NCBI GenBank assembly: GCA_030704615.1
Contig: CM060731.1
Span: 18,042,001 to 18,106,000, forward strand
DNA from: Takakia lepidozioides
Lineage: Eukaryota > Plantae > Bryophyta
Direction of reading: 5' to 3'
Length of the DNA: 64,000 nucleotides
Below are positions 10,188 through 54,925 of the stretch, piece by piece; position 1 is the stretch's first letter; every line of letters begins with the position of its first letter. The notes under the pieces were generated by a model. The model was not told the DNA's origin, ran no database searches, and saw nothing but the letters and a program-made list of their open reading frames with translations. Made by a program: the position numbers and the translations under genes.

Positions 10188-11393
10188 TGTTAGAGGGCTG
10201 CTTGGGACTTAGACGCTTTTACGGGTTCTGTGGGGTACCCTTAATTTTTGCGCAGACTTATGAATGGTAGACTGCGACCAGCAGGAGCCTTAGGGGTGGG
10301 AGGCGCAGGCTTTAGGGGGGGTAGACAGCTTGTCACAGTCTATCACAGCTAGACACAGTCTGACACAGCCCGACACTGCTTCGCACAGCCAGTCACAGCC
10401 CGACACAGCTTTACACAGCCCGTCACAGTCTATCACAGCCAGATACAGTCTGACACATCCGACACAGCTTCGCATAGCCAGTCACAGCTCAACACAGCTT
10501 TACACAGCCCGTCACAGTCTATCACAGCCAGACATAGCCCGACACAGCTTTGCACAGCCAGTCACAGCCCGACACAGCTTTACACAGCCCGTCACAGTCT
10601 ATCACAGCCAGACACAGTCTGACACAGCCGACACAGCTTTACACAGCCCGTCACAGTCTATCACAGCCAGACACAGTCTGACACAGCCCGACACAACTTC
10701 GCACAGCCAGTCACAGCCCGACACAACTTTACATAACCAGTCACAGCTCGGCACAACTTGACACAGCCTGTCACAGTGTACATGGGGAACAGTTATCATT
10801 GACAGGGAACGACTGTGTGGGTACGACATCTACAGAGGGAACGTGTTACTTCAAGGGTGACGGTTAATTAGTTAGGTGGTTAGAACAGCTTGCAGGTAGA
10901 TTAGACAGGGCGGCAACAGGAAGAGGATCACTTCTTGAGGAGGACGAGAAGGGGAGATGTAACGGAGAGTGGAAACAGTGAAGAGGAGATGATGACTTGA
11001 TTGAGGCTTAATTCACGCAAACTGTAAAATTATACAGTATGGTAGATTAGGGACACCATGGCATAAGCATGATACATGATTAATCTTAATCCGATATTGA
11101 ATCGATACAAACATATTGTGTAGAGAGACATGAGAGAAGCTGTGGAATGAATGCATGATTAATTGGAACTTAGTAGATACTGAAGCAATCTGATGCTTCA
11201 GTATACACGGTAAGGTAAATTGATAACATGAAGGCAAGAAGGAATACAAATAGGAAGCACAACCATGATTCACTAGCTGTAGGTCATGACTGATTGTTCT
11301 GAGCGGGCTGAGTGCTTAGAGATATCCAACTCTTCTATCTTGGAGTTTCCACCTCGGATAGCGAAGGGATGGGTGAGTAAAAGCCGCTCGACA
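10188..11393 (+). repeat. Complete 3' LTR (1206 bp, TG...CA) with internal (T/A)CACAGCC(C/T)G minisatellite at ~10330-10775
   Basis: PPT upstream, TSD downstream, imperfect inverted termini. Confidence 0.9.
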
Positions 11394-26163: not shown

Positions 26164-26239
26164 AGAAAAATAACTATACAGAGTCCTCCCTGCACCTTCA
26201 CCCTGACAGGCACCCAGCTAACAAGACTGGGCTTACATG

Positions 26240-30316: not shown

Positions 30317-30590
30317 TAGAGTAGTGCCGGAGGGATCCTCGGATTTGAGGGTTAAGACTGCCACGGCGGCGCCATGGCAAGCTGCAGCTGCTAGGTTGAT
30401 GGAGCTGTCAGCTAGGCCAGCCATTGAGCGCGCCATGGTGACACCTGGAGTTGTCATGTTAGACAACCAGGATGACATTTTCTGTTTGAGTGGACCGGCG
30501 GGCAAGAGGTACCGGCCACTGCGGGTCTTGTTGGACTCGGGAGCTCAGCCACTGATGCTGGGCAGAGCTGCTATTGCAGGCTTGGGCAGA
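30317..30590 (+). pseudogene. Retroviral-type aspartic protease fragment, probably from element 1
   Basis: LRVLLDSGAQPLMLG; same strand as the pol at 33629. Confidence 0.7.
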
Positions 30591-33121
30591 GTAGCCCTCA
30601 CCTGTGGATGTTCCGCAATTCCATCTCTGATCCAAGGAAACACGTGGCGTCGAGAAGTTGACCCTGTCCGCCTATGGGAATCTGCATCCGATCCCGGAGG
30701 GGTGTCCAATTTCCGTTTGCAAGACCCGAATCTCTCTTCGCCTTCCAGATGGGGAACTCTTCCCACGAGAGGGGTGCCATCTGCACATATGCTCACTGCC
30801 CGCGCTATTTTGCTAGGATCCCCTGATCTTCCAGCTGCCCGCAACATCAACTCGCTCATGTCCGGACCTTTGCCCCTCAAGAATGACCTGTATCTAGTTT
30901 GCTGCTGTAGAGCACGAATAAGGTCATCGGCCGTCGCTGCATACAAATCTCTCCCTTTTTTGCCGGATTGCTGCAACCAGGCATTGTGCACTGTCTCCGC
31001 AAGATTGCAAGAAGGCATGTCCACCATCTCCTCAATGGACATATGCTGCAAGGCAAAAAAACACAAAGCCCATATTAGAGTTGGACCCTGAAAGATATAT
31101 TGGAAGCACCCAAACAAACTTTTGAATGCAAACCACTCACCGTTGTCATGGCCGCTCCCCACTGTCGGTAACGGAGTGCCAAAATGCGAACCAGTCTTGC
31201 AGTGCCCTCATGCTGTCCTCCGATGCCGCTCCAGATGAGTACCACCAGGCACGAATTGTCTGGAACAATGTATTCGCTTCCCCCATAGTTTTGGCGTCTT
31301 TGTACTGTTTGCACAGTTGACGATGCATACTCTGCATATCTGGCTTGATGTACGTCTTTGTGTGTTTGTCGAGGGATTGTGTCCAATGGAAAAGACACGT
31401 ACGTTCTCTTCTAGGCATTGGCACTTTTGGATCTCCCGACCCGAACACAATGCGGACAGCGTTGAAGTTAGCTTGAGCACTATCGGCCATGAAACCAACG
31501 AAATTGGGAGATGGGAGACCATTGGAGGCCATAACACGAATGAGAGCTTCCCACATGAGCTGCTGTGAGTCTGTGTCCTCTGACTGCATGTCACACACTG
31601 CAATTGTCATGACCCGCTGGTACACAGGGTCGTAAACATGACATGCCATTGTGGTCCAGTCTTTAACTCTCTTGACATGATCGAACATAAGGAAGCAGTT
31701 GCCAAGATCGCCACCCTTCTGCATACGTTTAACCAGGCTGACCCCGCTGCCCTCACCTTTTGTGGACATTTTGAACAAGAACACTTTCCTGGCTCCTTGT
31801 CCCGGGAAAACACTGTCTTGGATGTAGTCGTACATGCTCCTTTTCTTCAAATCCATAATATTGTCCATATAACCTCGGCTCCCAGAGCCCATTCTTAAAG
31901 CGTTCACCTGATTCCTAATGTTTGGAGAAGTCAAGCAGAGAAATGGTCCATAACAGTGTCCAAGCTGGTCCTTCCAGCATTCGTCCAACCGAATTTGATG
32001 CACACAGAATACGGCTTTCCAGAAAGGACTTGCTCGCCCCCATGGCAATTGCAGATGTGGTGCCAGTTGGATTGGTATCCAACTCTTGCCTTATCAGACG
32101 AGAGACTGTGTCAACGCTCTCCTATAATCCCCCTTGGACACAGGGTGGTTGTGAAAACCGAAATGGACACAGGCTCTAGTCAGGTTTTTGAATCGATGCA
32201 CCACATAATACATTCTGGCGCCACACAAAGCAAGGCAGCAAGGTGGTACCCTACAGAACTTGCACACAAAAGTGTTACTGTATGGTGGTGTTACCCCAGG
32301 CTTGAATGGATTCTCACTGACTCCATCCCATTCGCTTTGGTTTTGCACACCTGACAATGCGAAGTGTCTGCATTTCATGTTCTCGCATTTCAGGTGCCCA
32401 TTACAGACTGTTCGCCTGAATATGAGGTTGTCGTTGTTGTGAATATTGGATGTTTTTGTGCGGCACCAAGGGTGCCCATCGTGCTTTTTGTCCATTCCTT
32501 CCAGGAGACTGGAAATCCCCCCACGCGACCAGGAGGAGGCAGCTCAAAAACAGTATTACCATCAAACGATTCCGGCAAGAATGCCACCCTTTCAATATTG
32601 AAAGTGCTCCAGTCTATCCCCTCAACTCACTCTTGAATCCTGCCATCCCACCCATCGCTTTCAATTTAGGAATGACACTGGAGATCTCCTCCACATCTGG
32701 TTCTACATGTGGACATGGCTGATCCACAGGCGGAATTGCACATGTGTCATCGGAGGATGAGTCCGAAAGGTCAACTACAGTGTTAACGGCAGTCGCCTCC
32801 TTCTTCACAACCACTGGTGTCTTCTCCTGGGCCACTGATGCTGCCGTGCCAGGAGTTACGAACGATCCTGCAGACTGTCTCAGAGGAGCACTCAGCACCC
32901 TGTATCTGCCTGGAGGCACTCTCCATTGCGTGGTTGGTGCAGTTTGCGATGGTTTCTGGAACGCGTACTTGAGCAGTTTTCCATTGGCATCGTACACTTC
33001 CCTCTGAAGGAATAGACTACCATTTTCCAACCGAAACTGCGTTGCGAGGACGAGTTCATGAACCACCGCAAAACCATCATCTTCCACCTCATAAGAAAAT
33101 GGAACAGGGTGGTCGTCACTG
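30590..33121 (-). mobile_element. Mutator-like (MULE) transposase, frameshifted, with a GCM/WRKY-like Zn-binding region
   Basis: CNGHLKC...CKFC...CGAR...HNHP, then FLMFDHVK...FMADSAQA...CLFHW (DDE core with CxxH). Confidence 0.75.
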
Positions 33122-33621
33122 NNNNNNNNNNNNNNNNNNNNNNNNNNNNNNNNNNNNNNNNNNNNNNNNNNNNNNNNNNNNNNNNNNNNNNNNNNNNNNN
33201 NNNNNNNNNNNNNNNNNNNNNNNNNNNNNNNNNNNNNNNNNNNNNNNNNNNNNNNNNNNNNNNNNNNNNNNNNNNNNNNNNNNNNNNNNNNNNNNNNNNN
33301 NNNNNNNNNNNNNNNNNNNNNNNNNNNNNNNNNNNNNNNNNNNNNNNNNNNNNNNNNNNNNNNNNNNNNNNNNNNNNNNNNNNNNNNNNNNNNNNNNNNN
33401 NNNNNNNNNNNNNNNNNNNNNNNNNNNNNNNNNNNNNNNNNNNNNNNNNNNNNNNNNNNNNNNNNNNNNNNNNNNNNNNNNNNNNNNNNNNNNNNNNNNN
33501 NNNNNNNNNNNNNNNNNNNNNNNNNNNNNNNNNNNNNNNNNNNNNNNNNNNNNNNNNNNNNNNNNNNNNNNNNNNNNNNNNNNNNNNNNNNNNNNNNNNN
33601 NNNNNNNNNNNNNNNNNNNNN
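33122..33621. other. Assembly gap (500 N)
   Basis: Run of N. Confidence 1.
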
Positions 33622-35467
33622 GTGGGCCGTGGCACACTTCAGGTGCTATCTATACGGCAATCTTTTCACCCTTGTCACGGATCACCAGCCACTCAAGTGG
33701 TTGATGGAGTCAGACAAGCTTACGGGGAAGCTTGCACGGTGGGCACTTATACTCCAGGAGTATGACTTTCAGGTTGTGCATCGACCGGGTTTGGTCAATC
33801 GGGATGCGGATGGATTGAGTCGCAATCCATGCATGAGCCAGGAGGATGACACTGGAGCTCGGTGGCATGGTGAGACGGACGAGGAGATGGTGCCGGGATG
33901 GCACGCATCTGCATTTTTGTGTATCTTGGCATCGGGAGGTCAGATTGGACCTACAACAGGGATGACTGTAGACGGAGTGTCTGAGGACCCTGAGGCTAGT
34001 GATGAGCTAGGTGGTGCCAGAGATATACATGAGGATTCGGCTGTGTTGGACTACCTCCGCACGAGAGACACGGCAGCCATTGTGACTGCCAGGGAGAGGG
34101 ATCGGATCCTGCAACGAGCCAAGAGGTTCAAGTGGGAGGGGATACACCTACTTCGAGTGTGGGAGGATGGTTGGGTGAGGATTGTGCCTCACCCCACACA
34201 GCGTGCACGGTTAGTGCGCCATGCCCATGAGGAGTTGGGGCATTTTGGAGTGCGACGCACTCACAGTTTACTGCAGGGGCAGTATTGGTGGCGTGGTATG
34301 CATACAGAGGTGCAACAATTCGTGGCTAGGTGCATGGTGTGTGACAGGGTGCGTGCTTCATTCCACGCCCCTACACCACAGTTGCATCCTTTACCAATCA
34401 TGGGATTGGGCTACAGGTGGAGTCTTGACTTCGCAAGACCGTTGCCACTGACTATGCGCCACCACAGATATGTGTTGGTGATGGTGGAGCACTTCTCCAA
34501 GTGGATTGAGTTGGTTCAATTGCCTGACAAGGCTAGTGAGGGGGCTGCGTATGCATTCTTGGATCGTGTGCTTAGCCGATTTGGTGCTCCAGCTGAGGTA
34601 CTCACAGACCAAGGGAGAGAGTTCTTGGGGGAGTTTCAGGCTTTGTGTGATAAAGCCTTGATAGACCACCGCACCACTTCTCGGGATCATCCTGAGGCCG
34701 ATGGCTTAGCAGAGAGAGTTGTTCAGACGGTGAAGAGGGGTTTGCGCAAGTATGGCTTGCAGAAGGGACACCTAGGAGATTGGGATCTTCAGGTTCCTTG
34801 GTTAGCCCTGGGCTACAGGTTCAGCAAACAAGCATCACTTGCCTCCTTCTCACCATATTTCCTTCTCTTTGGCCGAGAGCCGGATTTGCCTGCAGCCATT
34901 CGTAGGGACATTGCTCAAGTCCTTAACCTTGACGACCCGGACGTGTGGGTACGTGCATGTGATCAGCGTGCAGAGTTGTTCAAGAAAGTCATGCCCATGG
35001 CTTTTGAGAACCTTGCCATTGCACAGCACCGTGATACGTTGAGGTATGCCACTATACGTGGTGGAGGATATCGTCCTGGGGTTCGGAGGTTTAGCCCTGG
35101 TGACTATGTTTATTTGCAGCAGACTGCTCCTACGACTCTGGATGTTACTGCAGGGCGTGTTATCCTGAGGGTTCGAGAGGTGTTGCCCTCAGGGGTCCTG
35201 ATCTTAGAGGGTCGGGATGGCATGACTTGGAAGGACCATGTGCGTAATTGTGCGCCATGTCACCTTCCCAATGTCGATGGCAGAGTTGACCCAAACTTGG
35301 CAGTGGTACCTGCAGGTTTGAGGTGCATGCTCTGTGGGTCTGCCAAAGGGGCAGCCACCATGCTGGTGTGTGATCGATGCTCAAGGGGTTGGCATATGGG
35401 ATGCTTGACACCACCTCTTGAGAAGGTTCCTGACGGAGATTGGTTGTGTCCACACTGCTTGGGATAG
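33622..35467 (+). CDS. Element 1 pol C-terminus: end of RNase H, integrase (HHCC + DDE), C-terminal PHD finger
   Basis: TDHQPL, DADGLSR; HEELGH...CMVC; LDFA...TDQG...AERVVQ; C4HC3 CMLC...CDRC..GWHMGC...WLCPHC. Confidence 0.93.
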
Positions 35468-35725
35468 TGGCAGTGGACATGACTGGAGGCAGCTAACAAG
35501 ACATGGGAGGCCAAGCTCATAGGAGTCAATACATGAGATCTCAAGCTCAAGTTCACAGGTTGTAAGACGGCAACTAATGATGGGGCAACTCTTGCACCCG
35601 GCCTCTTGATCTATCGAGTTTGAGTGTAGTAGGGATAGTGGTGGAGGACTTAGTGAGGCTATGGTCACTATCACATCTTGTGGCTACCTGGACTTAGAGG
35701 GACCTAAGCACCAGCTAGGGCGGCG

Positions 35726-36399
35726 ATTGTGTGGACTAGTGACTGCCATAGTGGGCAGCATAGTGGCAGCCTAGTGACTGACTAGTTGTAGCCTAGTGGT
35801 TGGACTAGTGCTGGACTAGTGGTATACTAGTGTGTGGTGTGCACATGTGTTGTGTGGTTTTGGACAGCGATGTAGTTGTGTAGCGATATGTATGCGCACG
35901 ACAGCTGTCAAGTTATTTTACCACTAGTGTGAAACTAGCTAGGAAATAGCTAGCTTTTACATATTGACATTTGGGATTGGCCCAAGTGTCAATCCAGGGG
36001 TCAAGGCAGATTTAGGCCCTGGAGTGGTTATCTTCACGGCAAGCGCGGGAGGCTCATCTTTCTCGAGTTGAGCCTCACCGCGCCTAGCTATGGCGCCGTA
36101 GTGTGGATTCCCCATGGCGTGGGGTTCACTTGGCTTGACTTGTATTTGAGTGATGAGGTTATATATGCATGAGTTTATGCTTCAGATTTGTGAGCTCGTG
36201 CTTGTATTCTTCTTCTTTATCATTGTGTGGACTAGTGACTGCCATAGTGGGTAGCATAGTGGCAGCCTAGTGACTGACTAGTTGTATCCTAGTGGTTGGA
36301 CTAGTGGTGGACTAGTGGTATACTAGTGTGTGGTGTGCACATGTGTTGTGTGGTTTTGGACAGCGATGTAGTTGTGTAGCGATATGTATGCGCACGACA
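35726..36399 (+). repeat. B1-GC-A2-B2 terminal block of element 1
   Basis: B1 35726-35903 and B2 36222-36399 are 178-bp direct repeats ending GCGCACGACA; A2 is 35906-36221. Confidence 0.95.
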
Positions 36400-37313
36400 G
36401 CCCAACAAATTGAGTGTCCTGCTTATGGAATCATAAGCATGGCCTGCTGGGGGTCATCATGGTGAACTTGCTGATGTTCTCCCTGATCCTCCACAGTGTG
36501 ATGCTTCACCAACCATTCAGGCCATTGCCCCACCAGATCCTCTTCCTGAACCACCTCATCCTCCACAGGTGCTGCAGTGTCCTAATATTCTACCTCTGGT
36601 ACCTCCGTCACAGGTGTGGGTATTACATGCACAGCAGGGATTTCCCTGGACAGACTCTGCACCTCTCGTACCACTGATTCCCTGACCAAGCCAGAGTTTT
36701 CATAGAGAAGGTCATCCTTCTCAATTTCTGCCACGACCAGCTCTGTAGTGGGAATGTCCAACCCTTCTCTTTCCAGAGCAATAGGTTCTGGTGGAACAAC
36801 ATGTACTAACTTAGGTACCTCTGAGACAACCGATTCAACTGGCTGTGATGGCTGTGGTACCGAAGTGACTTCTTCTTACCTCTCCAAAGGTCGTGCTTTT
36901 AGTAATAACAGCCCTCTGTGCTGTTTTGCCCCATCCTGCACAAGAGCTTGGGAAACATTATCTTGCGACTTTCTTGAAGCTAGTGGATCCGCCACTACAG
37001 TCATACCCCTCTTCTGTCTCTTAGACTGGTGTTGCTCTGCCAGTCCACCCTCACTATGTGAAGAACCTTGCTCCTCCATTGCAGTGGTTGCTGCCTCAAA
37101 CACTCCCATCTCCTTACGTTCTCGCGCATCAAGTATGCAAGAGTCAAGAATAATCTGAGCAATGACTGGGCCAGACACGATGATCGGAGACTTAGCAGCA
37201 GTGCCCTGTAACTTCTTCATCTCTTCCACCAGACCATTGTACATTAACTCTACCCAAGCTACATCCTCTCCTCGCAAGGCTTTCAGTATCTCCTCTGTGA
37301 ATGACCTGCTCAA
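36400..37313 (-). pseudogene. Displaced upstream part of the LTR-element extra ORF that continues at 7120 (+)
   Basis: Joining the reverse complement of 36400+ to 7120+ through one GGGC gives an open frame DSISRTLNLLG-TYVKSHVPSTQLAAL. Confidence 0.75.
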
Positions 37314-40300: not shown

Positions 40301-40759
40301 TTTTCGAGGCTCACATTCATATATAACAATAAAAAAAAAATCATTTTTTGATGTTTCATATAGGACTTCAGTATCTTTAAGAATAGAACAATACTCGTAT
40401 GAGTCCCAACTATCATATTTGTTTTCTATAGCGAGTGCAAAAAGTCCATAACACCTTTTCATATGGACTGTGACAATGTTGTATGCAATTTTCTAAAGTC
40501 CAATACTTCGACAAATCAACTTCATTCGTGGTGAGAATTTAAAAATTAGAGCTTGTAGTAGTTGGAAGCATAAGAGTCAGTCTCATGTCATCATTGTAAT
40601 AAAAATTTGTCTCTAAGCTGATACAATTGAATCAATCTATGTCATGTAAAAAACATGTTGTGGCAGGAAAATGTAGTCATTGTAGCTTGCTTTCACCTTG
40701 TGAAAATGTTGGGCGATTATTTAATTTTTTATGGGTTCCGCTGGCAGCTACGCCTCGTG

Positions 40760-41756
40760 TAGGCATGTCCTTGCCAAATCCAATGGTAACAACTCGCTCC
40801 TCCACCATGTTGAGCTCAATCCGCTCAGCCAGCAGAAACACATCTGCTAATGTGGGTTGGGCTGCTTGTAACAGGGTTGCATCTCGCACCCTTCTCTTGA
40901 GCTCCTTATCCAGAATTCCATACCAAAACTGGATTGCCTGAGCTTCAGTAACCCCTTGGGTCACACTTATCAAGCGTCTCATACGAGTGTACGCCTCTCG
41001 CAGGCTCTCATTGGGTTTGCGCTGGAAGTCTTGCAAACTTCGCAGCTTCTCTGTCCGTACACCTTGGTAGTTCCTCCGCAACTCCTGGAAAAACTCCACC
41101 ACCGGGTTGAATCTAGGCACATGTGTTGTAGTCGTGGCAGGAGGAGTAGTAGCACCTTTTGAACTGGTACCACCTGCAGAAGTACCAGCACTACTTGCTC
41201 CACTACTAGTGCTGGCAGTGGGAGCTATTGGTACTGATGCAGCTACTGGTCGCGTCGTGCCTCGAGTAATGGAGACGTAGTCAGGTGACCAATACATCCT
41301 CCACTCCTCAATCTCTACTTGATGTCCCCGCCTGAACTCGTGGTAATCGTCCATAGGCGGGCCTTCCAAATGCTGGAACAGTCCCTTCTACGCCATGAAT
41401 GGGGTGAATAGCTGTGGATTGCGCATCTGCTGCAAATCACACCAGCTGTCGAACTCCTGGATAAAGTCATCCAACTCGATTGTGCCCACAGCTCCAGAGT
41501 ACCTACGAGGCCCCTTGGTAGCTCCATACATCTCCTCCATGTCGTCCCACAACAATGGCGAATGAAACTGCACACCTGTTGATGAAGCCTCCGAGTCTGT
41601 GTCTGACTCTACAGTAGTTGAGGATGGCGGTGAAGGTGGTCTGAACCGAATACCTCGTCTTGTGAACCCACTCTCACTGGTACTGCTTGTAGCCTTACTC
41701 CCCTCAAAACCCTTGGGTAACTCCGTAATGACACTCACAATGTGCACCTCCTCCAC
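40760..41756 (-). pseudogene. Retrotransposon gag (capsid-like), one in-frame stop
   Basis: PRRYSG...DDFIQEFDSW, LQDFQRKPNESLREAYTRMRRL...FWYGILDKEL (major-homology-region-like); TAG at 41388-41390. Confidence 0.8.
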
Positions 41757-42275
41757 GTGACACTATAAGGCTCTAGTACTAATCTAATAGTGACACGGGT
41801 GGGCACCTGTTGCAGTCTAAGGGTCATATCCCAATGGCTCAGGGCACCTGCACCTGCATCCACCGCAAGAACTCCTATGGTTGGCTGGTCATCAACCCAG
41901 CCTCACCATAGAAGAAACACTGGTGGTCTTGCTGGTCATCACTCCAGCCTCACCACCGACAGCATACTCTAGGATTGACCGGTGATCAAATCCGGCCTAA
42001 TCCCTATGAAAGCAAGCGCCCACACAAAACCAACATGGCGCACAGTCAAGCATGCAGGTGTTGGGGGGGATCCAAACACAAGAAATCAGAATATCAACAC
42101 CCCCACACCAAAATCCAGCTGCAATGCTGATCCTGCAGAATATCCCAGCCCAAAACCCCGGACTGACTGGCCTCCACCAAGAGAGGCTTTGGCAACTACG
42201 AGTACAAGGTAATGAAAATAGTACAGAGATGGAGGGGAAGAATAGAAGCCCGCCCAAGCAAGATCTAATCCTGAT

Positions 42276-43025
42276 CTATGCTATCAACTTCCAGACTTCT
42301 CTCAAAGTGCCTCGCTCTGCATGATGGTAAGGTGTAGGAGGTATATCTATGTCCAGAAACCTGCCACTAACCTTGTCCCAAGCTACAGTAGCTCGCTCTA
42401 ACCAACCCTCCTCCTCTTTCTGCCAGGTAGAGACAAAACAATACTCCCCTATCTCCCGCTCACTGAACACTAAGGAAAACAAAGGTAGGGTCTGATAGTC
42501 TCTCAACTCGAAAGCTTTGAGACGGTTGCGGGTGTCCTCATTGCAAATGACTGCATCTCCTTCACGCACAACAAACGTGTCATTGCTAATGAACCCTCGC
42601 TTGTGGTTGCCCTGTGCAGAGCGTATCCGGCTGCAACCATGTCTGATTGCACAAACTTGTGTAGCTCCTGCTCCTCTGCTCCAGTACACCACAGCCTTGT
42701 GGCTGAACACCTTGGTCCCCGGGGTTGTCTTTGGCTGTGTTCCAAGCCTAGCTTTCACCCACTTTGGTATTTCACCTACAGCTGCAGAACTGCTGGCTCC
42801 AACAGAGTTCTGACTGTCCAAGGCGATATTGAGGCCCTCAATGCCAACTACAGCAGTCTGTTGTCTACTGCTAATGCCTGACTCCCAGTATGCAATCAAC
42901 TCGTCCAATTGTTCTCCACTCAAATCAGTCTGAGTTCCTTGGGAAACATAAATCCTGTCCCCTTGTGTGCACAGGCTAAGAGAAGAGACATGCCCTTCAA
43001 TTACGTCCTCATTTCCCCCAGCCAT
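42276..43025 (-). CDS. Orphan 249-aa ORF upstream of gag in element 2
   Basis: ATG-initiated open ORF in element sense; no recognisable motif. Confidence 0.45.
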   Translation of the reverse strand: MAGGNEDVIEGHVSSLSLCTQGDRIYVSQGTQTDLSGEQLDELIAYWESGISSRQQTAVVGIEGLNIALDSQNSVGASSSAAVGEIPKWVKARLGTQPKTTPGTKVFSHKAVVYWSRGAGATQVCAIRHGCSRIRSAQGNHKRGFISNDTFVVREGDAVICNEDTRNRLKAFELRDYQTLPLFSLVFSEREIGEYCFVSTWQKEEEGWLERATVAWDKVSGRFLDIDIPPTPYHHAERGTLREVWKLIA

Positions 43026-43771
43026 ACAAGGAGTACATCCACAGATTTGTCTCTCATATAGACCAGCACAGGTTCTAGAAACAGAATTGTGGATCTTTCA
43101 TGGCACACTCACACTCTAAAAATTCCATAGATTTTTAGCAGAGTCCTAAAAACAAAAACCAGGTCTAGATTGGTAGATTTCCCCTTTCTGCAGCTATCCC
43201 CACAAAAACTGAGTCAAACAGAGTTCATTTGACAAAGTTATGACCAATTAGGCTCTAAATCATTTAAATTAGATAAAAAACAAAAGTTTTTTTTTTATTT
43301 TTTTTTATTTTTTTAACACCAAAACGTTCTCGCCATTAAAAATTGTTCCCAGGTTACCTACGGGTTCCCGAGGCCGTTCCCCTCCAGGTCTATGCAAAAT
43401 CAAGCTGGTGTCGAACAACGCTCAAGTACTGGGGCTGTTAGGTCCTTCTGATCCTCACTGCGATCATGTGTCTTCAGTGCTACTTGCTTCTTCTTGCGTG
43501 CTCGCTGCCATGGACGCCCTGCATCATCTCCTCACTATGCCGCACAACGCCATTCCAATGGCTGGGGATGCTTATACATGCGGTATGAGGTCTTTCCCAC
43601 ATGTATTGATGTCTGTTGGGATTTAATATTCTGAAAGAGGTACTCAGGATTGAAGACCCAAAGTGCTTCTATCTCGCCTCACCAACAGCCGACTCTACTG
43701 CCTCCTTGCCTCTTTGCCGCTTGCCTGTGAAGCTGCACAGCGCGAGGATCGCTGCTGCGCGGGGATCCACC

Positions 43772-44062
43772 ATATCGCTCATCGCCAACGAAGATTTCCA
43801 GCACATTTTGCGAGTGCTCAACACAAATGTAGATGGACGGCAGAAGATCATGTTCGCTTTGACCTCCATCAAGGGAGTGGGGCGCCGTTTCGCTAACCTG
43901 GTCTGCAAGAAGGCGGACGTCGACACCAGCAAGAGAGCTGGTGAGCTGTCGGGTGCGGAGCTGGAGAACTTGATGGTGATTGTCGCGAATCCCCGGCAGT
44001 TCAAGATACCTGACTGGTTCTTGAACAGGAAGAAGGATCACAAGGACGGACGTTATTCGCAG
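43772..44062 (+). pseudogene. RPS18: Processed 40S ribosomal protein S18 (uS13) fragment inside element 2
   Basis: ATA in place of ATG, then [34 protein letters not shown]...[19 protein letters not shown]; no introns; C-terminal third missing. Confidence 0.9.
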
Positions 44063-45028
44063 GTCAAACTTTCTTCCAGACTGATCCAGGTCCTGTCAGT
44101 CCAAGTAAGTAACCTCTTCTAGAGGAGAACTAAAAGAGATTACGGGGAGGTAGGTTATATATGCACACAACTGGAGCTGGAACACCTGCCCTCCTGATCC
44201 ACCCCCACCATAACCTCGATAGGCAGAAGTAGCAGGGTACGGGTTTCCAATTAAGCCGTAATTCAGCTTCGAAGATGTTCAACTAGTGAAACACACAGCA
44301 GCTAAGAAAGATGCAACTGATGAAAGCCCTGCCATTCCTCACACCTCCACGCTCCCGGCATGCCCACCAAATGAAGACCTAGAAACAATATCGATCACCC
44401 GGCAACGTAACCCTGCAGCTTAAGCGACTGTCGACCATATAACGGCTAGCCAGTCAACGCAACGAGCTCCGCCCTGCTCTGATCTGCCAAAGAATCTTCA
44501 CCTATTCATCCTTTGCACTCCCAGGGTAAGACGAGACGAGCTAGTCCGTGGCCTGGGCTCCCTCCGCTTCAGGATTGTTGATCAAATGCAGCACCTTGGT
44601 TGTTGACCGGTCATATTCCCCGTGTCCTAGCTTGGACTCCAAGACTGCAAGAGTGCAGGTATCAGCGTTCACAGCTTGCCAGCGCTGCTCCATGCTGCAC
44701 GGTAGAGCTTCTCTATAAGCTTACTGGGGAGACAATCATCCAGCTTCAAGGATCACGCATAGGTGCCAACTAGCATTTGCTGCTGCATTTTTAAGTCTCT
44801 CCTCGTGTACTCCAAAGCCTCTGGTGACTTGGTAGCTTTAGCGACTGCAATAACAGTGGCGGCTCCGGCATCGTCATCCTCCAGGCGTTTCAGGGCACGC
44901 TGAATCTTGTGATCACATTCAATGATATGCTTCTCAAACTAAGCACTACTCACACACAGGTAATCTTGCAAGTGCTAACCCTCAACTCCTACCTTGTACT
45001 CACAGGTAAGAGATGATCTCTCTCGAGT

Positions 45029-45376
45029 GATAAACAACCCACGAACACATTGTTGACACAAAACATGAAAACCAAACCATCACTCTTAGAAATAGTAGTC
45101 GAGCCAGGGGCACCCCAAGCTATGGGGACTCCACCCCACAACAACCTACACTCCCATCATGAGTACACTCAGATCTAAACGCATGCAGGAGCTCGGTCGC
45201 GCAGGCTCAACTCGAGAGAGATGAGCTGCGCGATTGCCGCTCTCGTGAAGATAAGACGGACCAGGTGTCAAACTAAACTTGACACCTGAGTTAACACTTG
45301 ACCTAAATCCAAGTGTTAAATACAAATAACTAGTTTTATTCTAGCTGTTTTCACACTGTGCTTATTTAACTTGACA
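45029..45376 (-). repeat. Repeat A1 of element 2 (348 bp)
   Basis: Near-identical inverted copy of 53968-54315. Confidence 0.95.
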
Positions 45377-45542
45377 CATTGTATGGTCTTCCAAAGTCCA
45401 TAACGTTGTCATTTCTTATTGGATTCATGATTGGAGAGTTGCTATGGGTGCGTATTGAAGCTATGAATCCAATGACATATATAGTTACTGGTTTTAATGA
45501 GTTAATTCAAAAAAAATTGATGACACCATCAACTGCAGTCAT

Positions 45543-48500
45543 CTAAAGTTGTGTCGGTAACATCCATTTTGGTCCAGCCATTCCTGCATTCACCCAGAAC
45601 ATGTGGTGAGATGGCCAGGATGCAAAGATTTGGTCAGGTGGGGCCATCGGGTTCATATCTTTTTCAGGAGAAGACCATTGGCAATTCTGACAGGGGTAAA
45701 CTGTCCCCCAGAGATTGCGACTGGGATCATTGAATCCAGACGAGAACATTCGAGAGCAGGGGTTTAATGCTCAATGGCATCCCCATGAAATGGTCAGCCT
45801 GAGTAGAAGTGATGTAGATGACTCTATTGGGTAAGGATGTACACGAGGTGACCCAGTCTCCAGGGAGACAGCATCGAGGTCCAGAGGTGAGAGTGTGGAG
45901 GAATATTTTGGAGAATGATCTGATAGCCAAAGATGCCACGTTGGGGCCCTACTATGTGGTTGATGTGGTCTTGAGACACAAAGGCATGCATGTTCCAAAT
46001 ATCCTTTACTTGGGAAATTGACAGCCTGTCCCAGGCTGAAAAACTTGATGCTGATGAATCTCTTTGGGAAGGGGACGGAGCATTGGTATTCAAAGTCAGG
46101 AATTGACGCATGGTTTCCTCATAGTTAGTAGGTTCCAATTTTCTGAGGTGAGGTCTGATTGTTCCCCAAACTTCCCAAATTGTTTTCCAGAGAGAGGAAC
46201 CCATGGATTTCTGTTTGTAACCATGCACAATCTATCTGAGGGAGGGCCCCCAGACTTTGGATTTGAGGGGGGAGCTGCAGGAGACATTGTGTTGAAAGAT
46301 CATGAGTTTTCACCAACCCCCTTCAGTCCCAGGAGCCTCACCACCCATTTGCTAAGTAGGGCACTAATCTGTGTACCAGGGTCAATTACACCCAGCCCAC
46401 CTTTGTTTTTTGGGAGGCATATCTGGACCCATGAAACAACTGGTCTTGGGTTTTTTTTCCCAGGAATCAGCAAACAAAGTTTCGAATGGTTTGCTTAATT
46501 TCATTGATTTGATAGATGGAAGGGCTCCACACTCCAAGAGAATTTGGTTGGCCACAAGGGCCCGACCAATTAGAGATAGATGTCTTGATCCCCAATATAC
46601 GATTTTCTTTTATAGCCTCGCTCGTCATCTGTGAGGTTGATTCCGAACGGGTGGCCAAGCGGGGTAGTCAATTCACCTTCTTTTAATCATTTGAGGCCAA
46701 GATCCTAGCCCCAAGTAGGGGACTGAGATTGCCATGTCCCCCACAAGAACGGCAACTATCTTGGCCCAATTTACACAGAACCCTGACGCTTCACAGAAAA
46801 TTGAGAGCATGTTTATAGCTTCCATGAGGTTGGCATGGGAGGCCTGGAGGTAATTTAGCACTGTGTCATCCACGAACATTGAATCCTTAATTTCCAAGCC
46901 AGGGAGAGACTTGGAATTTGTTTTGAGTCCGGTACTTATGTTGGGGTTGTTATCCAATAGGTATCCATGTGAGTCAGCCACAATTAGAATGAGAAAAGGG
47001 GCCGGGGGGCAACCCTGGCGCACAGATCTTTCGAGGTTGAATGGTTTGGAGATAAACCCATTCATCGAGACCCTGCTAGTGGCATTGTGAAGTAGGATTT
47101 CCACCCATTAGCAGAAGCTTTCTAAGAGTCCAATTTTTCTGACGATTGCTAACAGCATAGGCCATTCGACCTTGTCGAACGCCTTCTCAATCGTGGAGCT
47201 CCACAATTCAGATGGCCAGCTTTATTCAGACCCAAAGCTTATGGTAACCATAGCTCACTCCCGTTTCCAGACTCTCTTCAAACAGAGGCCCCCTACCAGC
47301 AGTATGACCGCAGCCAGAGAAACATGCCTTCGCAGTCATCCAACAAAGCTGGACCATCTAGGTGCAGCCTCCCTTGATGGAGTCTTCACTCAGACATAAC
47401 TCTTCAAAGCTGTAGAAATCATGACCAATCACAAATCCTTGGGCTTCGACGGTATGCCAGTGGAATTTTATAAATCCCTATGGATGACAATTTCTGCTGA
47501 CTTCTGTGACATGGCCAATGAGTTCAAGAAGGTGGGGGCTATGCCTTAACTGATGGCTCAAGGGGTTATCGCTCTCCTGTACAAAAAAGGAGACAAGAAA
47601 CAGATCTCTAATTACAGGCCAATCACCCTTCTAAATGTCTCGTACAAGACAATTGCAAAAACCCTAGCTCTTAGGCTTCAACCACAACTTCTCCCATCGG
47701 TGGTCAAACCATGCCAGACTGGACTCATCAGAGGCAGCTACATACTAGACAACATCTTGCTGGCACAAGAAACCCCGATCTTTGCGGAAACCACTAGCCA
47801 ATCAATTGCAATGCTCCTTCTGGTTGGCCGGAGGCCCTTCTGACCTGGACCTTTTCGAAGAAGTACTTCGACATCTTTTCCCCTTTTGTTGACCAATTAA
47901 TGCCTGCTTGGAGCTTGAGCTTTTGCTCATTTAGGGATGAAATGGCTTCCAGATTTTGTCGGGCAACCCCACCCAAGCTGTTTCCAGGGCATGTTTGAAT
48001 GAGGGGATGGGAAGCAAGGAGGTGCTGAGCTTGAACAATCCTTTGCCACGTTTTGGGAGGTTCGGGAAGTTAATTTGGCATGAGATGCTGGCATGGTCGA
48101 ATTCCTGATGGATTGGTTCTTGAGGTAGCATTGATGACCATGAGGAAAGCTCTTGGGAGATGTAGAGCCTATCTAACCTGCCATACATATTTCAGAGCCC
48201 GATCTATTGTTAGTCCAGGTGTAGCATGGTTGGGAGCCAGTAATGTTGGTAACTTTCCTGGGCTCTGATAATGAGAAGTTGTATCGGATCCTTTGCCATG
48301 TCATTGCCTCACGTTGTCACCAAGTCCAGGTGCAACTGAACCCAGCCTATCTGCCTGTTGCTCAACCATATTGAAGTCTCCCATGAGTATCCATTGCTTG
48401 ACCGAGGTCTCCAATTCCATCTTAGTGTGAAGACCAGACCAGAAGGCCTCATGCTCACTGGGAGAGTTTGGTGCATATACATTGACTATGGATCCCCAGG

Positions 48501-48830
48501 GCCCCCGTGTCATTGGGCAGGACAATGGATAACAGCTCGGCCCTGCCTTGGAACCAGATTTCATCTTTTTGAGCCAGGGTGGCGATGGAAGGGGACAACA
48601 ATATTGTTGTCCCACCTCTTGTATCTTCAATGGTGGGTTTCCAGAAACTGAGGGCCGCTGGCCAAAGTTGATCACCCAAGGATGCTATTTTGATAGGGTC
48701 TAGTTTGTGTTCTTGCAAGAGAATGATGGCATTTGATGTAACAAGGGAGAAAGCCATGTTTTGAGTTTGGCTTTCTTGAGGGTGGTTTGTGTTGAACCAA
48801 TCCCCCGGATGTTCCACGAATGGATTTTAA
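45543..48830 (-). mobile_element. Degraded L1/Tx1-type LINE ORF2 (APE endonuclease + RT) with an internal ~640-bp inversion
   Basis: LLQEHKL, VNVYAPN, WILMGDFN, RLDRLY; EKAFDKVEW, SVRQGCP, FVDDT. The YRPITLLN segment is on the + strand at ~47188-47825. Confidence 0.88.
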
Positions 48831-49340
48831 CCAACATCAGTGGGAATGGATAGGCTGAGACAGATGGTCTCCTTTGATGGCCTTGAGGTTTGATATCTGA
48901 ACTTTGCTCTTTTGTCTGTTGGAAGTAGCAAGTTTTCCCATGTGAGGTTGGCTAGGGCCTTGTGGCATGTTGTGACCAGCTCAAGGAATAAAATGAGGAT
49001 GGGTTGGACAGTAGAAGTGGTGACTATCTTGGGTCTGAATTGCTTTGAGCAGACTAGCTAATTTGAGGAGTGGAGGGGGGTCTTGGAGAAGACCAAGTGA
49101 GGCCCCGATGCTGCACATTGAGGAGGCTGGCAGATTTAACCCCGTCAGTTGGCGAAGGGCCTGAGGCCCATGGTCGTGGGGGTTCCACCAAAGGACTGGA
49201 AGAGTTTTGACTTTTCTTAATGCCGTCTAGATGAAGGTTTCCTACACAAGACTTTGCATCTGACATTCAAGACAGATCATATGATATTTAGATGTCGTAA
49301 AATTTCAAATATTTGGAACTGATGGTCTTGAAAATATTTT

Positions 49341-52300
49341 CAACTGGGCAAGGTTGCCCAGCCCAAGTTCCATGGAGCTTACAGGGGACCTCAGGTGCAG
49401 AGGCCCGTGGCATCTTTTGCAGGCCAACAGCAACCAGGGGTGATATGTTGGACATGTGGAGGACCCCATGTCAAGAGAGATTGCCCAAAGAGTGGCAAAA
49501 GGCCGGCACAAGCACAGCCTGCACAGTTGCAGTGTGGGCATTGTGGCAAGTATGGGCATGGAGATGCCCAGTATTATGACTTGCATCCTGAGTTTTTGCG
49601 CTGCTTGCAGCTTCATCAAGCTGTATCTCCAGCATACATCTTGGAGAATGTACCATTGATGGGTGATTCTCGGGCCAGGGTGATGGCCAATGTGCATCAA
49701 GTCCGGTCGTGGCTTGGGTCAGCAGTGTTGCTGGATGCAGCTGCAGTGGGGTCTCGGGCTCATCGTCCACGGCTTTGGTGGACTAACTTGATGCCACCCG
49801 CACTACTCAAGCGTGCATTTGATGGGGTGCAGCGGCCAGCACACCTCACCGTGGATGGCATTTTGGACACAGGGAGGCAGTCTCAACGTGTGAGACACGA
49901 TGACCGTTCGCCTTTGGCAGTGGTCAACAGGGTGGGTCAACCATGAGCAGCATTACCTACACTGCTCAGCTTCCCAGGATCCCATGCTTTTCGGGATGGT
50001 GGACCTGGCCTCCTGTGGGATGCTCAGTTGCAGCAGTTAGTGGAGCCTAATGCCGATGAGCGAGAGCGGGCTATGGGGTTTTCCACTGGGACCACGACGG
50101 TGCCTTCTCTTTCTGAGGCATCACGGCGTCAGGTGTTGGGGCAAGCAATGGATCTCAATTGCTTGACTTGGATTATCAGCTTGGCTATGGCTGAGCAACG
50201 TAGAGTGCGGAGTGCATTCCCCTTCATGGTCGCTCTACCTACCGAGACGGTACAGGCAGGGAGTGGGGGCGAGCATGTGAGGACCGCGGGGTGTAGACAT
50301 CCATGGCACACGTGGGAGGTGCTCGAGGTCCAAAGGGAGTTGGCAGCCAAGGCAGCTGTGATGGATGAGGTTGGGGATTTTTCTCGGGTTGAGGAGGTTC
50401 TCAATGATGAGATGATGGGGCAGGATGAGGCCTTGTCATTGACTGAGCAGGAAGGGGGTACTGCTCAAGAGGTTGCAGCATAGCAACCACGGGACGCGTC
50501 CTCTACCTCTAAGCCCACTGGACTTAAGGTTGCAGTTACGGAGGACAATTGGGAGCCTGACATTGGACCCATTGTCACCGGAGGAGAGAGACAACGTATA
50601 CGGCGGTTCCTGAGGGCTTACAGGAATTGCTTTGCCTTCAGTTTGAAGGACTTGGGAGCACTGAAGGGTCAAGAGATCCGTATTGAGTTGGCCACTGACA
50701 CGCCAATCTTTCGGAGACCCTATAGATACAGTGACATGGAGAGGTCTTTGATTCAGATGAGGACTCAAGATCTCTGGGAGGCAGGTTTGGTGAAGCTCTC
50801 TGGTGGAGAGTATGCTTCAGCCACAGTGATGCCAGCTAAGAAGGATGTCTATGGCAATTGGACGGAGAGACGTATGTGCGGTGATTACCGGCCTGTAAAT
50901 CGTCAGACCAAGTCCGATAGGTATGCCATGCCAACACCAGAGGAAATCTTTGATGCCATTGGGCATTCCAAGGTCTTTAGCACGTTGGATTTACGATCCG
51001 GATATCACCAGTTGCCGATCAAGGAGGCGGATAAGCAAAAGACGGCATTCTGGGGGATCAATGAGCACGGGAAGGATTGCCTATACCAGTGGCGGTTCTT
51101 ACCATTTGGGCTTAAAAATGCTCCCGCTGAGTTTCAAAGAGTCATGGACAGGATTCTAGTAGGGGTGGAGTTTGCTCGGTGCTACATAGATGACATCATC
51201 ATCTTTAGTGCTACGGTGGAGGAGCATGAGAGACACCTTCAGGGGGTATTTGAGCGCTTAAGGACGCACGGATTGAAGTTACATCCGGGAAAGTGCAAGT
51301 TTTTCCACAACCAGATTGAGTATCTGGGTCACATGATATATCCTGGAGGATTGGGGGTACAACAGACTAAGGTAGAGTCCATTGCACAGGTTCCACGCCC
51401 CACGGATGTGAGCCGAGTTCGAGCTTTCATGGGGTTAGCAAACTATTACAGACGGTTTGTTAAGGGATTCAGTGCCATTGCAAAGGCTCTAACCAAGCTG
51501 ACCAAGGTGGACCAGGAGTGGTAGTGGGAAGATGAGCAAGAACAAGCTTTTCAAGAGCTCAAGGCGAGGTTGACCTCGGCACCCATCTTGAGACGACCTA
51601 TCAGGGGGCGTCCTTTTCAGCTGCATACAGATTGGAGCATGCTGGGGCTTGGAGCGGTGCTCACACAGGTGGATGATGAGGGAAGAGAGTTCGTAGTGGC
51701 TTATGCTAGCCGCTCGAACAATGCTGCAGAGTCTAAGTATAGCTCATATGAGGGAGAATGCTTAGCTGCAGTGTGGGCCGTGGCACACTTCAGGTGCTAT
51801 CTATATGGCAATCTCTTCACCCTTGTCACGGATCACCAACCACTCAAGTGGTTGATGGAGTCAGACAAGCTTACGGGGAAGCTTGCACGGTGGGCACTCA
51901 TCCTTCAAGAGTATGACTTCCAGGTGGTGCATCGACCGGGTTTGGTCAATCGCAATGCAGATGGGTTGAGTCGCAATCCATGCACGAGCCAACAGGATGA
52001 CACTGGAGCTCGGTGGAATGGTGAGACGGACGAGGAGATGGTGCCCGGATGGCATGCATCTGCATTTCTGTGTATCTTGGCAGCGGAAGGCCAGGTTGGA
52101 CCTGCAACAAGGATGACTGTAGATCAAGTGTCTGAGGACCCTGAGGCCAGCAATGAGCAAGATGGCGCCAAAGATATACATGAGGATTCAGTTGTGTTGG
52201 ACTACCTCCGCACTGGAGACACGACAGCCACTGTGACTGCCAAGGAGAGGGATCGGATCCTACAACGAGCCAAGAGGTTCAAGTGGGAGGGGACACACCT

Positions 52301-53617
52301 GCTCCGAGTGTGGGAGGATGGTCGAGTGAGGATTGTGCCTCACCCAACACAGCGGGCACGGTTAGTGCGCCATGCCCATGAGGAGTTGGGGCATTTTGGG
52401 GTGCGACGCACTCATAGTCTACTGCAGGGGCAGTATTGGTGGCGTGGTATGCACACAGAGGTGCAACAATTTGTGGCTAGGTGCATGGTGTGTGACAGGG
52501 TGCGTGCTTCATTCAACGCCCCTACTCCACAATTGCACCCTCTTCCGATCATGGGATTGGGCTACAGGTGGAGTCTTGACTTCGCAGGGCCGTTGCCACT
52601 GACCATGTGCCACAACAAGTACGTGTTGGTGATGGTGGAGCACTTCTCCAAGTGGATTGAATTGGTTCCATTGCTTGATAAGGCTAGTGAGGGAGCTGCG
52701 TATGCATTCCTGGATTGTGTGCTTAGCCGATTCGGTGCTCCAGCTGAGGTACTCACGGACCAAGGGAGAGAGTTCTTGGGGGAGTTTCAGGCTTTGTGTG
52801 ACAAGGCCTTGATAGACCACCGCACCACTTCTCGGGATCATCCTGAGGCCGATGGCTTGGCAGAGAGAGTTGTTCAGACAGTAAAGAGGGGTTTGCGCAA
52901 GTATGGCTTGCAGAAGGGACACCTAGGAGATTGGGACCTTCAGTTACCCTGGTTAGCCATGGGCTACAGGTTCAGCAAGCAAGCATCACTTGCCTCATTC
53001 TCACCATACTTTCTTCTCTTTGGCCGAGAGCCGGATTTGCCTACATCCATTCGCAGAGAAGCTGCTACAGTTCTTAACCTTGACAATCCGGACGTGTGGG
53101 CACGTGCATGTGAACAGCGTGCAGAGTTGTTCAAGAGAGTCATGCCCATGGCTTTCGAGAACCTTGCCATTGCACAACACCGTGATACGTTGAGGTATGC
53201 TACCATACGTGGTGGGGGCTATCGTCCTGGGGTTCGGAGATTCAACCCTGGTGACTATGTCTATCTGCAGCAGACTGCTCCTACGACCCTGGATGTGACT
53301 GCAGGACGTGTTATTTTGAGGTTCGAGAGGTCTTGCCCTCAGGCGTCTTGGTCTTGGAGGGTCGGGATGGCATAACTTGGAAGGACCATGTGCGTAATTG
53401 TGCGCCATGTCACCTTCCGAATGTCGATGGCAGGATTGACCCAAACCTGGCAGTGGTATCTGCAGGTTGAGGTGCATGTTGTGTGGGTCTGCTAAAGGGG
53501 CAGCCACCATGCTGGTGTGCGATCGATGCTCTAGAGGTTGGCATATGGGATGCTTGACTCCACCTCTTGAGATGGTTCCGGATGGGGATTGGTTATGTCC
53601 ACATTGCATTGGATAGT
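49341..53617 (+). pseudogene. Element 2 polyprotein: zinc knuckles - DNMT3-like MTase - RT - RNase H - integrase - PHD (single frame, few stops, two late frameshifts)
   Basis: ORFs at 49395, 50028, 50643 and 51570 share one frame. CWTCGGPHVKRDC; LENV; YIDD; LHTDWS/EGECLA; HHCC and DDE; PHD at ~53473-53608. Confidence 0.92.
49590..50190 (+). other. C-terminal part of a DNMT3-like C5 cytosine methyltransferase domain within the polyprotein
   Basis: EFLRCL...AYILENV (motif VI), LLDAAAVGSRAHRPRLWWTNL (motif VIII), ERERAMGF (IX), SRRQVLGQAMD (X); motifs I-IV removed by a deletion. Confidence 0.85.
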
Positions 53618-53878
53618 GGGAGTGGATACAACCATGGAAGGCTAACAAGAAACGCAAGGCCCAGCCAGCTACTAGGAGACCTTGAACACACGAGGTCCTG
53701 GCTCAAGTTCACAGATTGCAAGACGGCGACTAACGATGGGGCTACTCTTGTACCCGGCCTCTTGGTCTATAGAGTTTGAGTACAATAGGAACAGTGATAG
53801 AGGACTTAGTACGGCTGTGGCTATTACATCTTGTAGCTATCTGGAGGTAGAGGGACCTATCCACCAGCTAGGGGGGCG

Positions 53879-54403
53879 ATTGTGGCAGACTACTTTATTG
53901 TGCATATATGTGTGGTGTGGTTTGGACAGCGATGTAGTTGTGTAGCGATATGTATGCGCACGACAGCTGTCAAGTTAAATAAGCACAGTGTGAAAACAGC
54001 TAGAATAAAACTAGTTATTTGTATTTAACACTTGGATTTAGGTCAAGTGTTAACTCAGGTGTCAAGTTTAGTTTGACACCTGGTCCGTCTTATCTTCACA
54101 AGAGCGGCAGTCGCGCAGCTCATCTCTCTCGAGTTGAGCCTGCGCGACCGAGCTCCTGCATGCGTTTAGATCTGAGTGTACTCATGATGGGAGTGTAGGT
54201 TGTTGTGGGGTGGAGTCCCCATAGCTTGGGGTGCCCCTGGCTCGACTACTATTTCTAAGAGTGATGGTTTGGTTTTCATGTTTTGTGTCAACAGTGTGTT
54301 CGTGGGTTGTTTATCCATTGTGGCAGACTACTTTATTGTGCATATATGTGTGGTGTGGTTTGGACAGCGATATAGTTGTGTAGCGATATGTATGCGCACG
54401 ACA
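53879..54403 (+). repeat. B1-GC-A2-B2 terminal block of element 2
   Basis: B1 53879-53965 and B2 54317-54403 are 87-bp direct repeats ending GCGCACGACA; A2 is 53968-54315; G-rich tract AGGGGGG just before B1. Confidence 0.95.
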
Positions 54404-54925
54404 AATGGACTTGTTTCCGCAGTGAATGGAATTACAATGGACTCAAGAAGTCTTATTGCCATTGGTCAATTCCATTGAAATTTGGACATAAGGTGGCCAT
54501 TTTGGTCCACATCATAGGTATGGATTTGAAGTGGCAAAATCATTTGTCATTTGACTCATATGGACTAATATATGTAAAACAATAGGCATTTTTTGAAAAG
54601 TCCATAGCTCATCTTGTTTTTCGGATTTTGGGTGTCATTTTTTTTTTCTAAAGTATAAAAACCTATAATCTTCAATGGCTAGGTGGCATATTGCCAAATT
54701 TTTGTAAACTCCTAAATTTTAGTTTTTCATAATTTATCTAAATAACAGACTAAAATATTTAATAAATTATGTATTTAATATTTGGGGTAGGACTCTTTAC
54801 TAAATATGTTCAGTATACCATTATCTATCACTAAAAAACTATTTTGGATTTTATCCACAACTTGTTTTGTTTTGGTCATGGACTTTCATGGACTTGGATC
54901 TGCCGTTTTTGGTCCACTCAACCCT

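Follow-up and report, generated by a model that had tools for sequence, protein, structure and literature searches.

How does a retrotransposon that encodes a DDE integrase come to begin and end in the middle of its own long terminal repeat (LTR)? The question is raised by two Gypsy-type elements in a 64,000-nucleotide stretch of the bryophyte Takakia lepidozioides (contig CM060731.1, positions 18,042,001 to 18,106,000; hereafter the window), each of which carries a repeat A at one outer end and the compound end B-GC-A-B at the other. Because copies of this family begin and end at a palindrome in mid-LTR, and not at the predicted ends of the complementary DNA (cDNA), the integrase likely cuts the DNA copy internally, with the leftover ends being rejoined; such a course is not usual for retroviruses or textbook LTR elements. 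That the element's own integrase attaches internally seems to us very probable. We also think it probable, with distinctly less assurance, that copies start at A and end at B with a 4-bp duplication because the DDE integrase cuts the palindrome inside the LTR after the cDNA ends have been joined into a 2-LTR circle.

The window copies already display the relevant landmarks. The palindrome GACA-GC-TGTC occurs exactly twice in the window, at 35900-35909 and 53962-53971, each time where B1 meets A2, and the outer ends of both elements are the two halves of this palindrome, each adjoining the 4-bp duplication. The tract AGCTAGGG(G/C)GGCGA runs straight into B1 in both elements. Repeat copies are closely similar, A1 and A2 agreeing in 315 of 319 aligned columns in element 1 and 346 of 351 in element 2, and B1 and B2 in 174 of 177 and 85 of 86, respectively. 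An initial annotation of this DNA, which also noted the primer-like site and the TGTC…GACA ends, had placed the repeats, polypurine tracts (PPT) and GCCC and AATG duplications within 1-2 bp of where we find them, and its proposal that B+GC+A is the LTR unit of reverse transcription agrees with the position of the PPT directly before B and of the primer site directly after A.

Relatives were taken from one metagenome scan, as the best 80 of 554 related stretches, and their 3' forms were counted with three reference B-unit sets, leaving out 21 of the 80 loci that gave no match (short contigs, foreign insertions, other families). The A…B-A-B arrangement is present in direct orientation in five loci (L009, L054, L044, L046 and L060). 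A B-A-B 3' end was found in 29 loci with 20 distinct flanks, plus L077 by eye (about 21 independent insertions), and B followed by flanking DNA in 24 loci, 23 of them distinct and 21 after dropping L027 and L047, which lie at contig ends. Two further loci have one internally deleted A-B end in common, and three read B-A: L056 ends in A, and L010 and L011 fold back through the primer site. Seven of the B-A-B insertions are represented by two or more loci, and the B-only list contains none of their flanks. The ordinary LTR 3' end (B-A-flank) occurred in none of these best 80 of 554 loci, nor did B lie upstream in any of the 12 5' A copies tested, among which L021 has only 58 nt upstream. The majority of ordinary (B+A)-internal-(B+A) copies that the initial annotation had set against its own reading did not appear. 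Half of the 3' ends belong to the form A-internal-B, which it had not foreseen.

The placement of 4-bp duplications at the A and B termini was found to extend family-wide, at the B|A boundary. Duplications flank both window copies (GCCC, AATG) and are exact in six of ten two-ended metagenome copies (L009, L054, L060, L021, L029 and L067); with a chance of 0.005 per copy, the probability of six exact in ten is about 4e-12. In the window's organism, unlike flanks precede the start of A in at least 22 contigs (agreement 0.40) and follow the end of B in at least 30 (agreement 0.36), and the end of A continues into the primer site in at least 8 (agreement 0.92). Two records from one sample of this organism (X1 record 7 and X4 record 22) span the PPT and B and then enter unaligned DNA, which makes it probable that the B-only form is more than an artefact of metagenome data. 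Even the aberrant copies L010/L011 and L042 still terminate on a half-site. In L010/L011, 296-813 nt after the integrase match, B-GC-A-primer site is followed by the inverted first 180 nt of A, ending on the half-site, an apparent case of fold-back priming seen in two contigs; in L042, about 7800-7500 nt before the match end, the left end consists of PPT-B in inverted orientation, fused to the final bases of A plus the primer site.

The two junctions of the B-A-B end differ in their constancy. The B|A spacer is exactly 2 nt in 27 of 27 copies (25 loci and both window copies) and holds across five families whose integrases share 51-76% identity with that of element 1 and whose repeat bodies are unrelated. 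Its letters in the 25 loci are GC in 9, the transitions AC, AT or GT in 15 and TC in 1, and in families c1 and c2 the site has a 7-bp inverted core, CACGACA / TGTCATG. The A|B joint, in contrast, matches a blunt join between the predicted cDNA ends in 11 of 22 copies, the other 11 departing from it; with joint classes assigned by eye, length variation at the joint (11/22) and in the spacer (0/27) differs at Fisher p=2.4e-5. Departures comprise gains of 1 to 3 nt, losses of about 5 and about 214 nt and, in L013, about 19 nt of inserted sequence copied from A. In family c2, four of six small insertions (+A, +AT, +AT, +ATT) are identical to the opening bases of the primer site; a fifth combines one primer-site base with one tract base. 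Such variability would be the expected trace of end joining of imperfectly trimmed cDNA ends, and 2-LTR circles are described as end-joining products (PMC3148978). The start of B in c2 lacks the usual TG, which is consistent with a cDNA end that is no longer an integrase substrate.

The sequence after A1 could pair with a stretch lying about 145-175 nt into A, the complementarity being perfect over 16 nt in element 1 and 12 nt in element 2. The self-complement lies at the expected place inside A in six of seven loci tested and in both window copies, with a TATA-like box upstream in most loci. This pattern predicts self-priming of the Tf1 type, in which the element RNA serves as its own primer. 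Self-priming occurs in the Tcn1 clade (PMC6317226); we rejected it as proof of membership in that clade.

We propose that the RNA begins about 150 nt into A1, terminates in A2 and would use the site following A1 for self-priming, and that ordinary reverse transcription, as the positions of the PPT and primer site suggest, would produce a linear (B-GC-A)-internal-(B-GC-A). The end of A and the start of B would then be joined imprecisely, leaving the footprint seen at the A|B joint. At the host junctions the footprint is GACA and TGTC, with the 2-nt spacer lost and 4 bp duplicated; the integrase may nick after CA on both strands, in the LTR adjoining the primer site. A 2-LTR circle cut at this site beside the primer site would, on balance, be the source of A-internal-B-GC-A-B, the only form predicted to retain the repeat needed for strand transfer. 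The A-internal-B copies may be dead-end products of 1-LTR circles, of cutting at both sites, or of repair through repeat homology; since B-only copies have no downstream copy of the transcript's 5' end, they are predicted to be dead ends. Precedent for the chemistry is provided by foamy-virus integrase, which is reported to cleave the palindromic junction in 2-LTR circles (PMC1180852).

Several observations weigh against the integration of such circles. A circle has two identical sites, yet the mirror form A-B-A-internal-B is absent (0 of 12 5' ends; 0 of the 5 B-only copies whose left end is visible), so that simple opening at either site fails and an unexplained bias is needed. The 2-LTR circle opened inside one LTR, as the initial annotation had it, is favoured by a variable joint resembling joined cDNA ends, and its form as written there lacks the mirror product that it should also give. 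Conversion through the longer repeat A would account for both this absence and the 1:1 ratio of the two forms. The mechanism is read wholly from integrated copies, circle and cleavage both being putative, and the circle-precursor idea for retroviruses is described as disproven (PMC3148978). Among the ten two-ended copies, the duplication has one mismatch in L002 and L046 and is lacking in L044 and L065. The end tallies cover only contigs among the matches listed, and rare ordinary ends could be hidden. Locus L023 is a short-read chimera that switches inside B, and the existence of such chimeras means that B-only copies may have been overcounted; in L007 the order is B-A-primer site, which would be expected of an ordinary 5' LTR or of a collapsed assembly. 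Finally, both window copies are rearranged by inversions.

The same termini, duplications and variable joint would also be explained if the integrase cut linear cDNA at the internal site and inserted both half-sites, the leftover cDNA ends forming a chromosome break whose repair in place would give A-internal-B-A-B through end joining or A-internal-B through repeat annealing. Annealing via the longer repeat A would remove the A-B-A form and could yield the two forms at near 1:1 (21:21), and the fold-back copies L010/L011, in using the A half-site as their right end, indicate that half-sites from different sites can pair. However, this route requires a double-strand break at every insertion, and the window inversions have their breakpoints in gag and flank rather than at the A|B joint; we regard it as unlikely, though deserving of serious attention. 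A different possibility is that the elements replicate like PAT/Ngaro elements, the whole A-B-A-B end being transcribed, with template switches between split repeats, an inherited joint, and an integrase that merely replaces the recombinase. Here the conserved PPT directly before B1 and the primer site directly after A1 fit ordinary LTR synthesis instead, and joints that contain primer-site bases or deletions differ between sister copies. Even granting that the repeat order is that of split-direct-repeat elements (PMC7192593; PMC5890265) and that 11 of 22 joints are precise, we find this route quite improbable.

We give almost no credence to the idea that these are ordinary LTR elements whose arrangement was altered later through recombination or misassembly, or which a tyrosine recombinase acting in trans has moved. 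What speaks for it is that both window copies are inverted, one of them spanning an N gap, that chimeric contigs occur, and that L007 has the order noted above. Nevertheless, unrelated genomes, and families whose repeat bodies are unrelated, have these termini and 4-bp duplications in common, ordinary ends are absent from the best 80 of 554 loci, and the catalytic triad is conserved. Nor are B-only copies older than B-A-B copies (c1, 7 versus 6 copies, p=0.29; c2, 11 versus 12, p=0.44), in a comparison that is underpowered and includes the chimera L023. The intact, directly oriented L009, L054 and L060, with their exact duplications, largely refute this explanation.

As they stand, the window copies require some reconstruction. 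In both, A1 is an inverted repeat of A2, so that the stretch 45029-54407 is not itself an A-internal-B-A-B element; the layout given in the initial annotation is sustained by the repeats and by intact relatives, and the inversions that break the window copies went unstated there. The 5' half of element 2 extends to the left, between 45376 and about 40733, and its gag halves (41675-40686, minus strand; 49386 onward, plus strand) are neighbours in the intact relatives L054 and L067; thus, a single inversion (about 40732-49342, 8.6 kb, through gag) explains this element. The breakpoints have only a 2-bp CA/TG microhomology in common, at the edge of the flanking repeat's 16-bp palindrome, which is perfect and lies at 49328-49343, at the right breakpoint. 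For element 1, the A1 flank runs directly into the B2 flank in other copies of the host repeat (4 contigs in X4 and 4 in X5), and its two ends therefore represent one insertion site; the rebuilt empty site has a reading frame with a 1-nt shift, which is weak alone and was later confirmed by the host-repeat contigs. We judge the window inversions to be secondary, real rearrangement and assembly error both being possible. That they belong to the design of the element is ruled out by the direct orientation of intact relatives.

Table 1. Features of elements 1 and 2, in window coordinates.
Feature	Position	Strand	Remarks
Element 1 repeat A1	6799-7115	minus	317 bp
Element 1 primer site	6783-6798	minus	self-complementary, 16 nt perfect; adjoins A1
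Element 1 left target duplication	7116-7119	minus	GCCC (GGGC on plus)
Element 1 protease-region fragment	30320-30600	plus	same family, probably element 1's; 54-62% identity to L054/L067
Element 1 RNase H-integrase-PHD	33622-35467	plus	614-aa open frame after N gap
Element 1 PPT	35713-35726	plus	directly before B1
Element 1 repeat B1	35727-35903	plus	then GC spacer
Element 1 repeat A2	35906-36222	plus	
Element 1 repeat B2	36223-36399	plus	
Element 1 right target duplication	36400-36403	plus	GCCC
Element 2 gag, N-terminal part	40733-41760	minus	Retrotrans_gag E=2.6e-4; 51-54% identity to L054/L067; cut by inversion
Element 2 5' internal region	41760-45015	minus	holds intronless RPS18/S13 fragment and weak MAD-like fragment
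Element 2 primer-binding site	45016-45027	minus	12 nt perfect complement to site inside A; predicted self-priming
Element 2 repeat A1	45028-45376	minus	349 bp; left terminus TGTC at 45376, ends TATCA; inverted with its flank
Element 2 left target duplication	45377-45380	minus	AATG on minus strand (CATT on plus)
Flank DNA in element 2 inversion	45381-49340		LINE (long interspersed nuclear element) fragments inside AT-rich repeat; outside the element
Element 2 gag, C-terminal part, CCHC knuckle	49341-49595	plus	then about 2 kb missing (protease, N-part of methyltransferase)
Element 2 C5 cytosine methyltransferase, C-terminal remnant	49596-50480	plus	72% identity to P0124, a PF00145 carrier
Element 2 reverse transcriptase and RNase H	50484-52000	plus	Ty3/gypsy type; one stop at 51522
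Element 2 integrase and C-terminal PHD finger	52300-53620	plus	H2C2, D-D35-E intact; frameshifted near end
Element 2 PPT	53866-53879	plus	same tract precedes B in relatives
Element 2 repeat B1	53880-53965	plus	then GC spacer
Element 2 internal attachment palindrome	53962-53971		GACA-GC-TGTC, intact
Element 2 repeat A2	53968-54317	plus	one extra C at joint; GC spacer separates B1 from A2
Element 2 repeat B2	54318-54403	plus	right terminus GACA
Element 2 right target duplication	54404-54407	plus	AATG

Among the Pfam domains of the window elements are gag, reverse transcriptase (RT), RNase H, H2C2, rve integrase and a PHD finger. The family order is gag-protease-cytosine methyltransferase (DNMT)-RT-RNase H-DDE integrase-PHD, and the order gag-protease-RT-RNase H-integrase is intact in L067 and L054. 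Matches in intact relatives are weak for the protease (E=0.01) and for the C5 methyltransferase (PF00145, E=0.0019 in L054); homologs of the methyltransferase carry PF00145, and the window keeps its C-terminal part only. The best solved-structure matches of the RT are 4ol8 and 7q5b (Ty3-G; E ~1e-47), far above retroviral RTs, and the closest solved relatives of the integrase are those of Ty3 and foamy virus. The D-D-E triad (D-D35-E) of this rve integrase is intact in both window copies, and no tyrosine recombinase was matched in a scan of 74 stop-to-stop frames of at least 70-100 aa, to which L054, L046 and L067 contributed 49, in keeping with the initial annotation's call of a DDE integrase and not a tyrosine recombinase. 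Pfam scans of the window copies and intact relatives gave no chromodomain after the integrase, a PHD finger standing there instead. On its protein sequences we assign the element to the Ty3/gypsy retrotransposon lineage.

Among named relatives, identity is 54-82% for Calypogeia, Riccia, Marchantia and Sphagnum, 47-53% for Klebsormidium, and 47% for Haematococcus and Volvox. In the integrase tree, the window copies group with bryophyte sequences, the integrase-PHD proteins of Volvox and Haematococcus fall in a wider group, and those of K. nitens lie among palindrome-bearing families, with deep-node support of 52-58. No K. nitens-named protein is among the 103 DNMT matches. Locus L075, sister to a K. 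nitens integrase-PHD match, has the same palindrome; a second B was not found there. The annotated Marchantia gene Mp_7g09570 (P0059), which matches both the DNMT and the integrase-PHD regions of the family, is possibly a deleted element or a domestication. A viral contig collection gave two pattern matches, neither of them a relative.

The region between primer site and gag in element 2 is about 2 kb longer than in L054/L067. It contains an intronless RPS18/S13 fragment (43610-44119, plus strand, E=4.5e-27) and a weak MAD-like fragment (44544-44720, E=0.041), possibly captured pieces of host mRNA. The LINE in the inverted flank (45450-49250) has endonuclease and RT fragments on the minus strand and, through a further inversion nested within the first, the start of its RT on the plus strand at about 47170-47840. 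Element 1 is interrupted by a transposase-like region without Pfam match (30600-33121) and contains a 500-N gap (33122-33621). The window as a whole looks unusually rich in inverted and fragmented elements. An LTR-like repeat pair of another element (91% identical; 3706-4048 and 10188-10800, 4500-5300, 24864-24954) is rich in 10-bp CACAGCCC-type tandem repeats, and element 1 sits in the coiled-coil frame of that CACAGCCC-rich repeat or a related one. A DUF659 (hAT-like) frame lies at 373-1626 and a second, distant Gypsy integrase (27% identity) at 25393-26217.

The layout has been mentioned before in KnitGypsy-Dnmt3 of Klebsormidium nitens (de Mendoza et al. 2018, PMC5890265), whose repeats are described in one legend sentence as arranged like a DIRS element, A-coding region-B-A-B. 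That element resembles ours in its Gypsy domains with a cytosine methyltransferase in pol and in its A…B-A-B repeat order, and K. nitens integrase-PHD proteins are among our matches (47-53% identity), none of them tied to a named KnitGypsy sequence. The legend account is silent on target duplications, an attachment palindrome, a primer site, the B-only form and the mechanism, and the present lineage is shown in liverworts and mosses. The initial annotation's statement that no described DDE-integrase LTR element was known to do this routinely agrees with our not finding the mechanism in print; the layout, however, is mentioned in that legend (Fig. 4c).

Our family shares its domain order, DDE integrase, PPT and 4-bp duplication with Ty3/gypsy LTR retrotransposons in general, and differs in having its termini inside the LTR, no two complete direct terminal LTRs, and a DNMT in pol. 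Chromoviruses have a chromodomain where a PHD finger is found here. Elements of the PAT/Ngaro type, with their DIRS order, are not known to carry an integrase and generally leave no target duplication. The repeat order A1…B1-A2-B2 is common to PAT/Ngaro, SymbioDIRS and the present elements (PMC7192593; PMC5890265), whereas a Ty3-type RT, a DDE integrase, a regular 4-bp duplication and the lack of any recombinase match set ours apart. Predicted self-priming is a likeness to the Tf1/sushi group and the plant Tcn1 clade (PMC6317226). Foamy-virus integrase (PMC1180852) and the Panganiban and Temin model (cited in PMC3148978) likewise involve an integrase acting on a CA-NN-TG palindrome in continuous DNA; in the retroviral case, however, the site is the LTR-LTR junction and the provirus is normal, whereas here the site would lie within the LTR and the insert retains the junction. 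Gypsy-7a_cRei of Chlamydomonas reinhardtii, a PHD-bearing Gypsy that is active in laboratory strains, has a left LTR without the last 8 bp of the right LTR (PMC9940879), and kinship with it is a lead only. In a literature search that did not extend to subscription papers, Repbase reports, theses, figures or part of the PMC9940879 supplement, we found no account of a Gypsy element integrating through an internal site or as a circle.

Taken as a whole, the sequence comparisons point to a real, lineage-wide departure from end-based LTR integration within Ty3/gypsy, with a layout glimpsed once before and a mechanism not found in print. Our confidence is evenly divided on the wider proposition that an ancient green-lineage Gypsy clade, from algae to mosses and liverworts, abandoned end-based integration for the obligate insertion of end-joined 2-LTR circles via an internal palindrome, which its integrase would cut in a site-specific manner, and that its members are the sole natural LTR retroelements with productive circles, their DIRS/Ngaro layout having arisen by convergence. 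This clade may include an active Chlamydomonas element. LTR finders that need two terminal LTRs would probably miss such elements in bryophyte and algal genomes or mis-bound them. The family also offers a natural integrase whose putative cleavage is internal and defined by sequence, and an opportunity to test the old question of whether circles are precursors. The accepted view (PMC3148978) takes LTR circles for dead ends and linear cDNA alone for the substrate of integration; the genomic footprints described here point to a lineage whose survival depends on joining its cDNA ends and cutting elsewhere.

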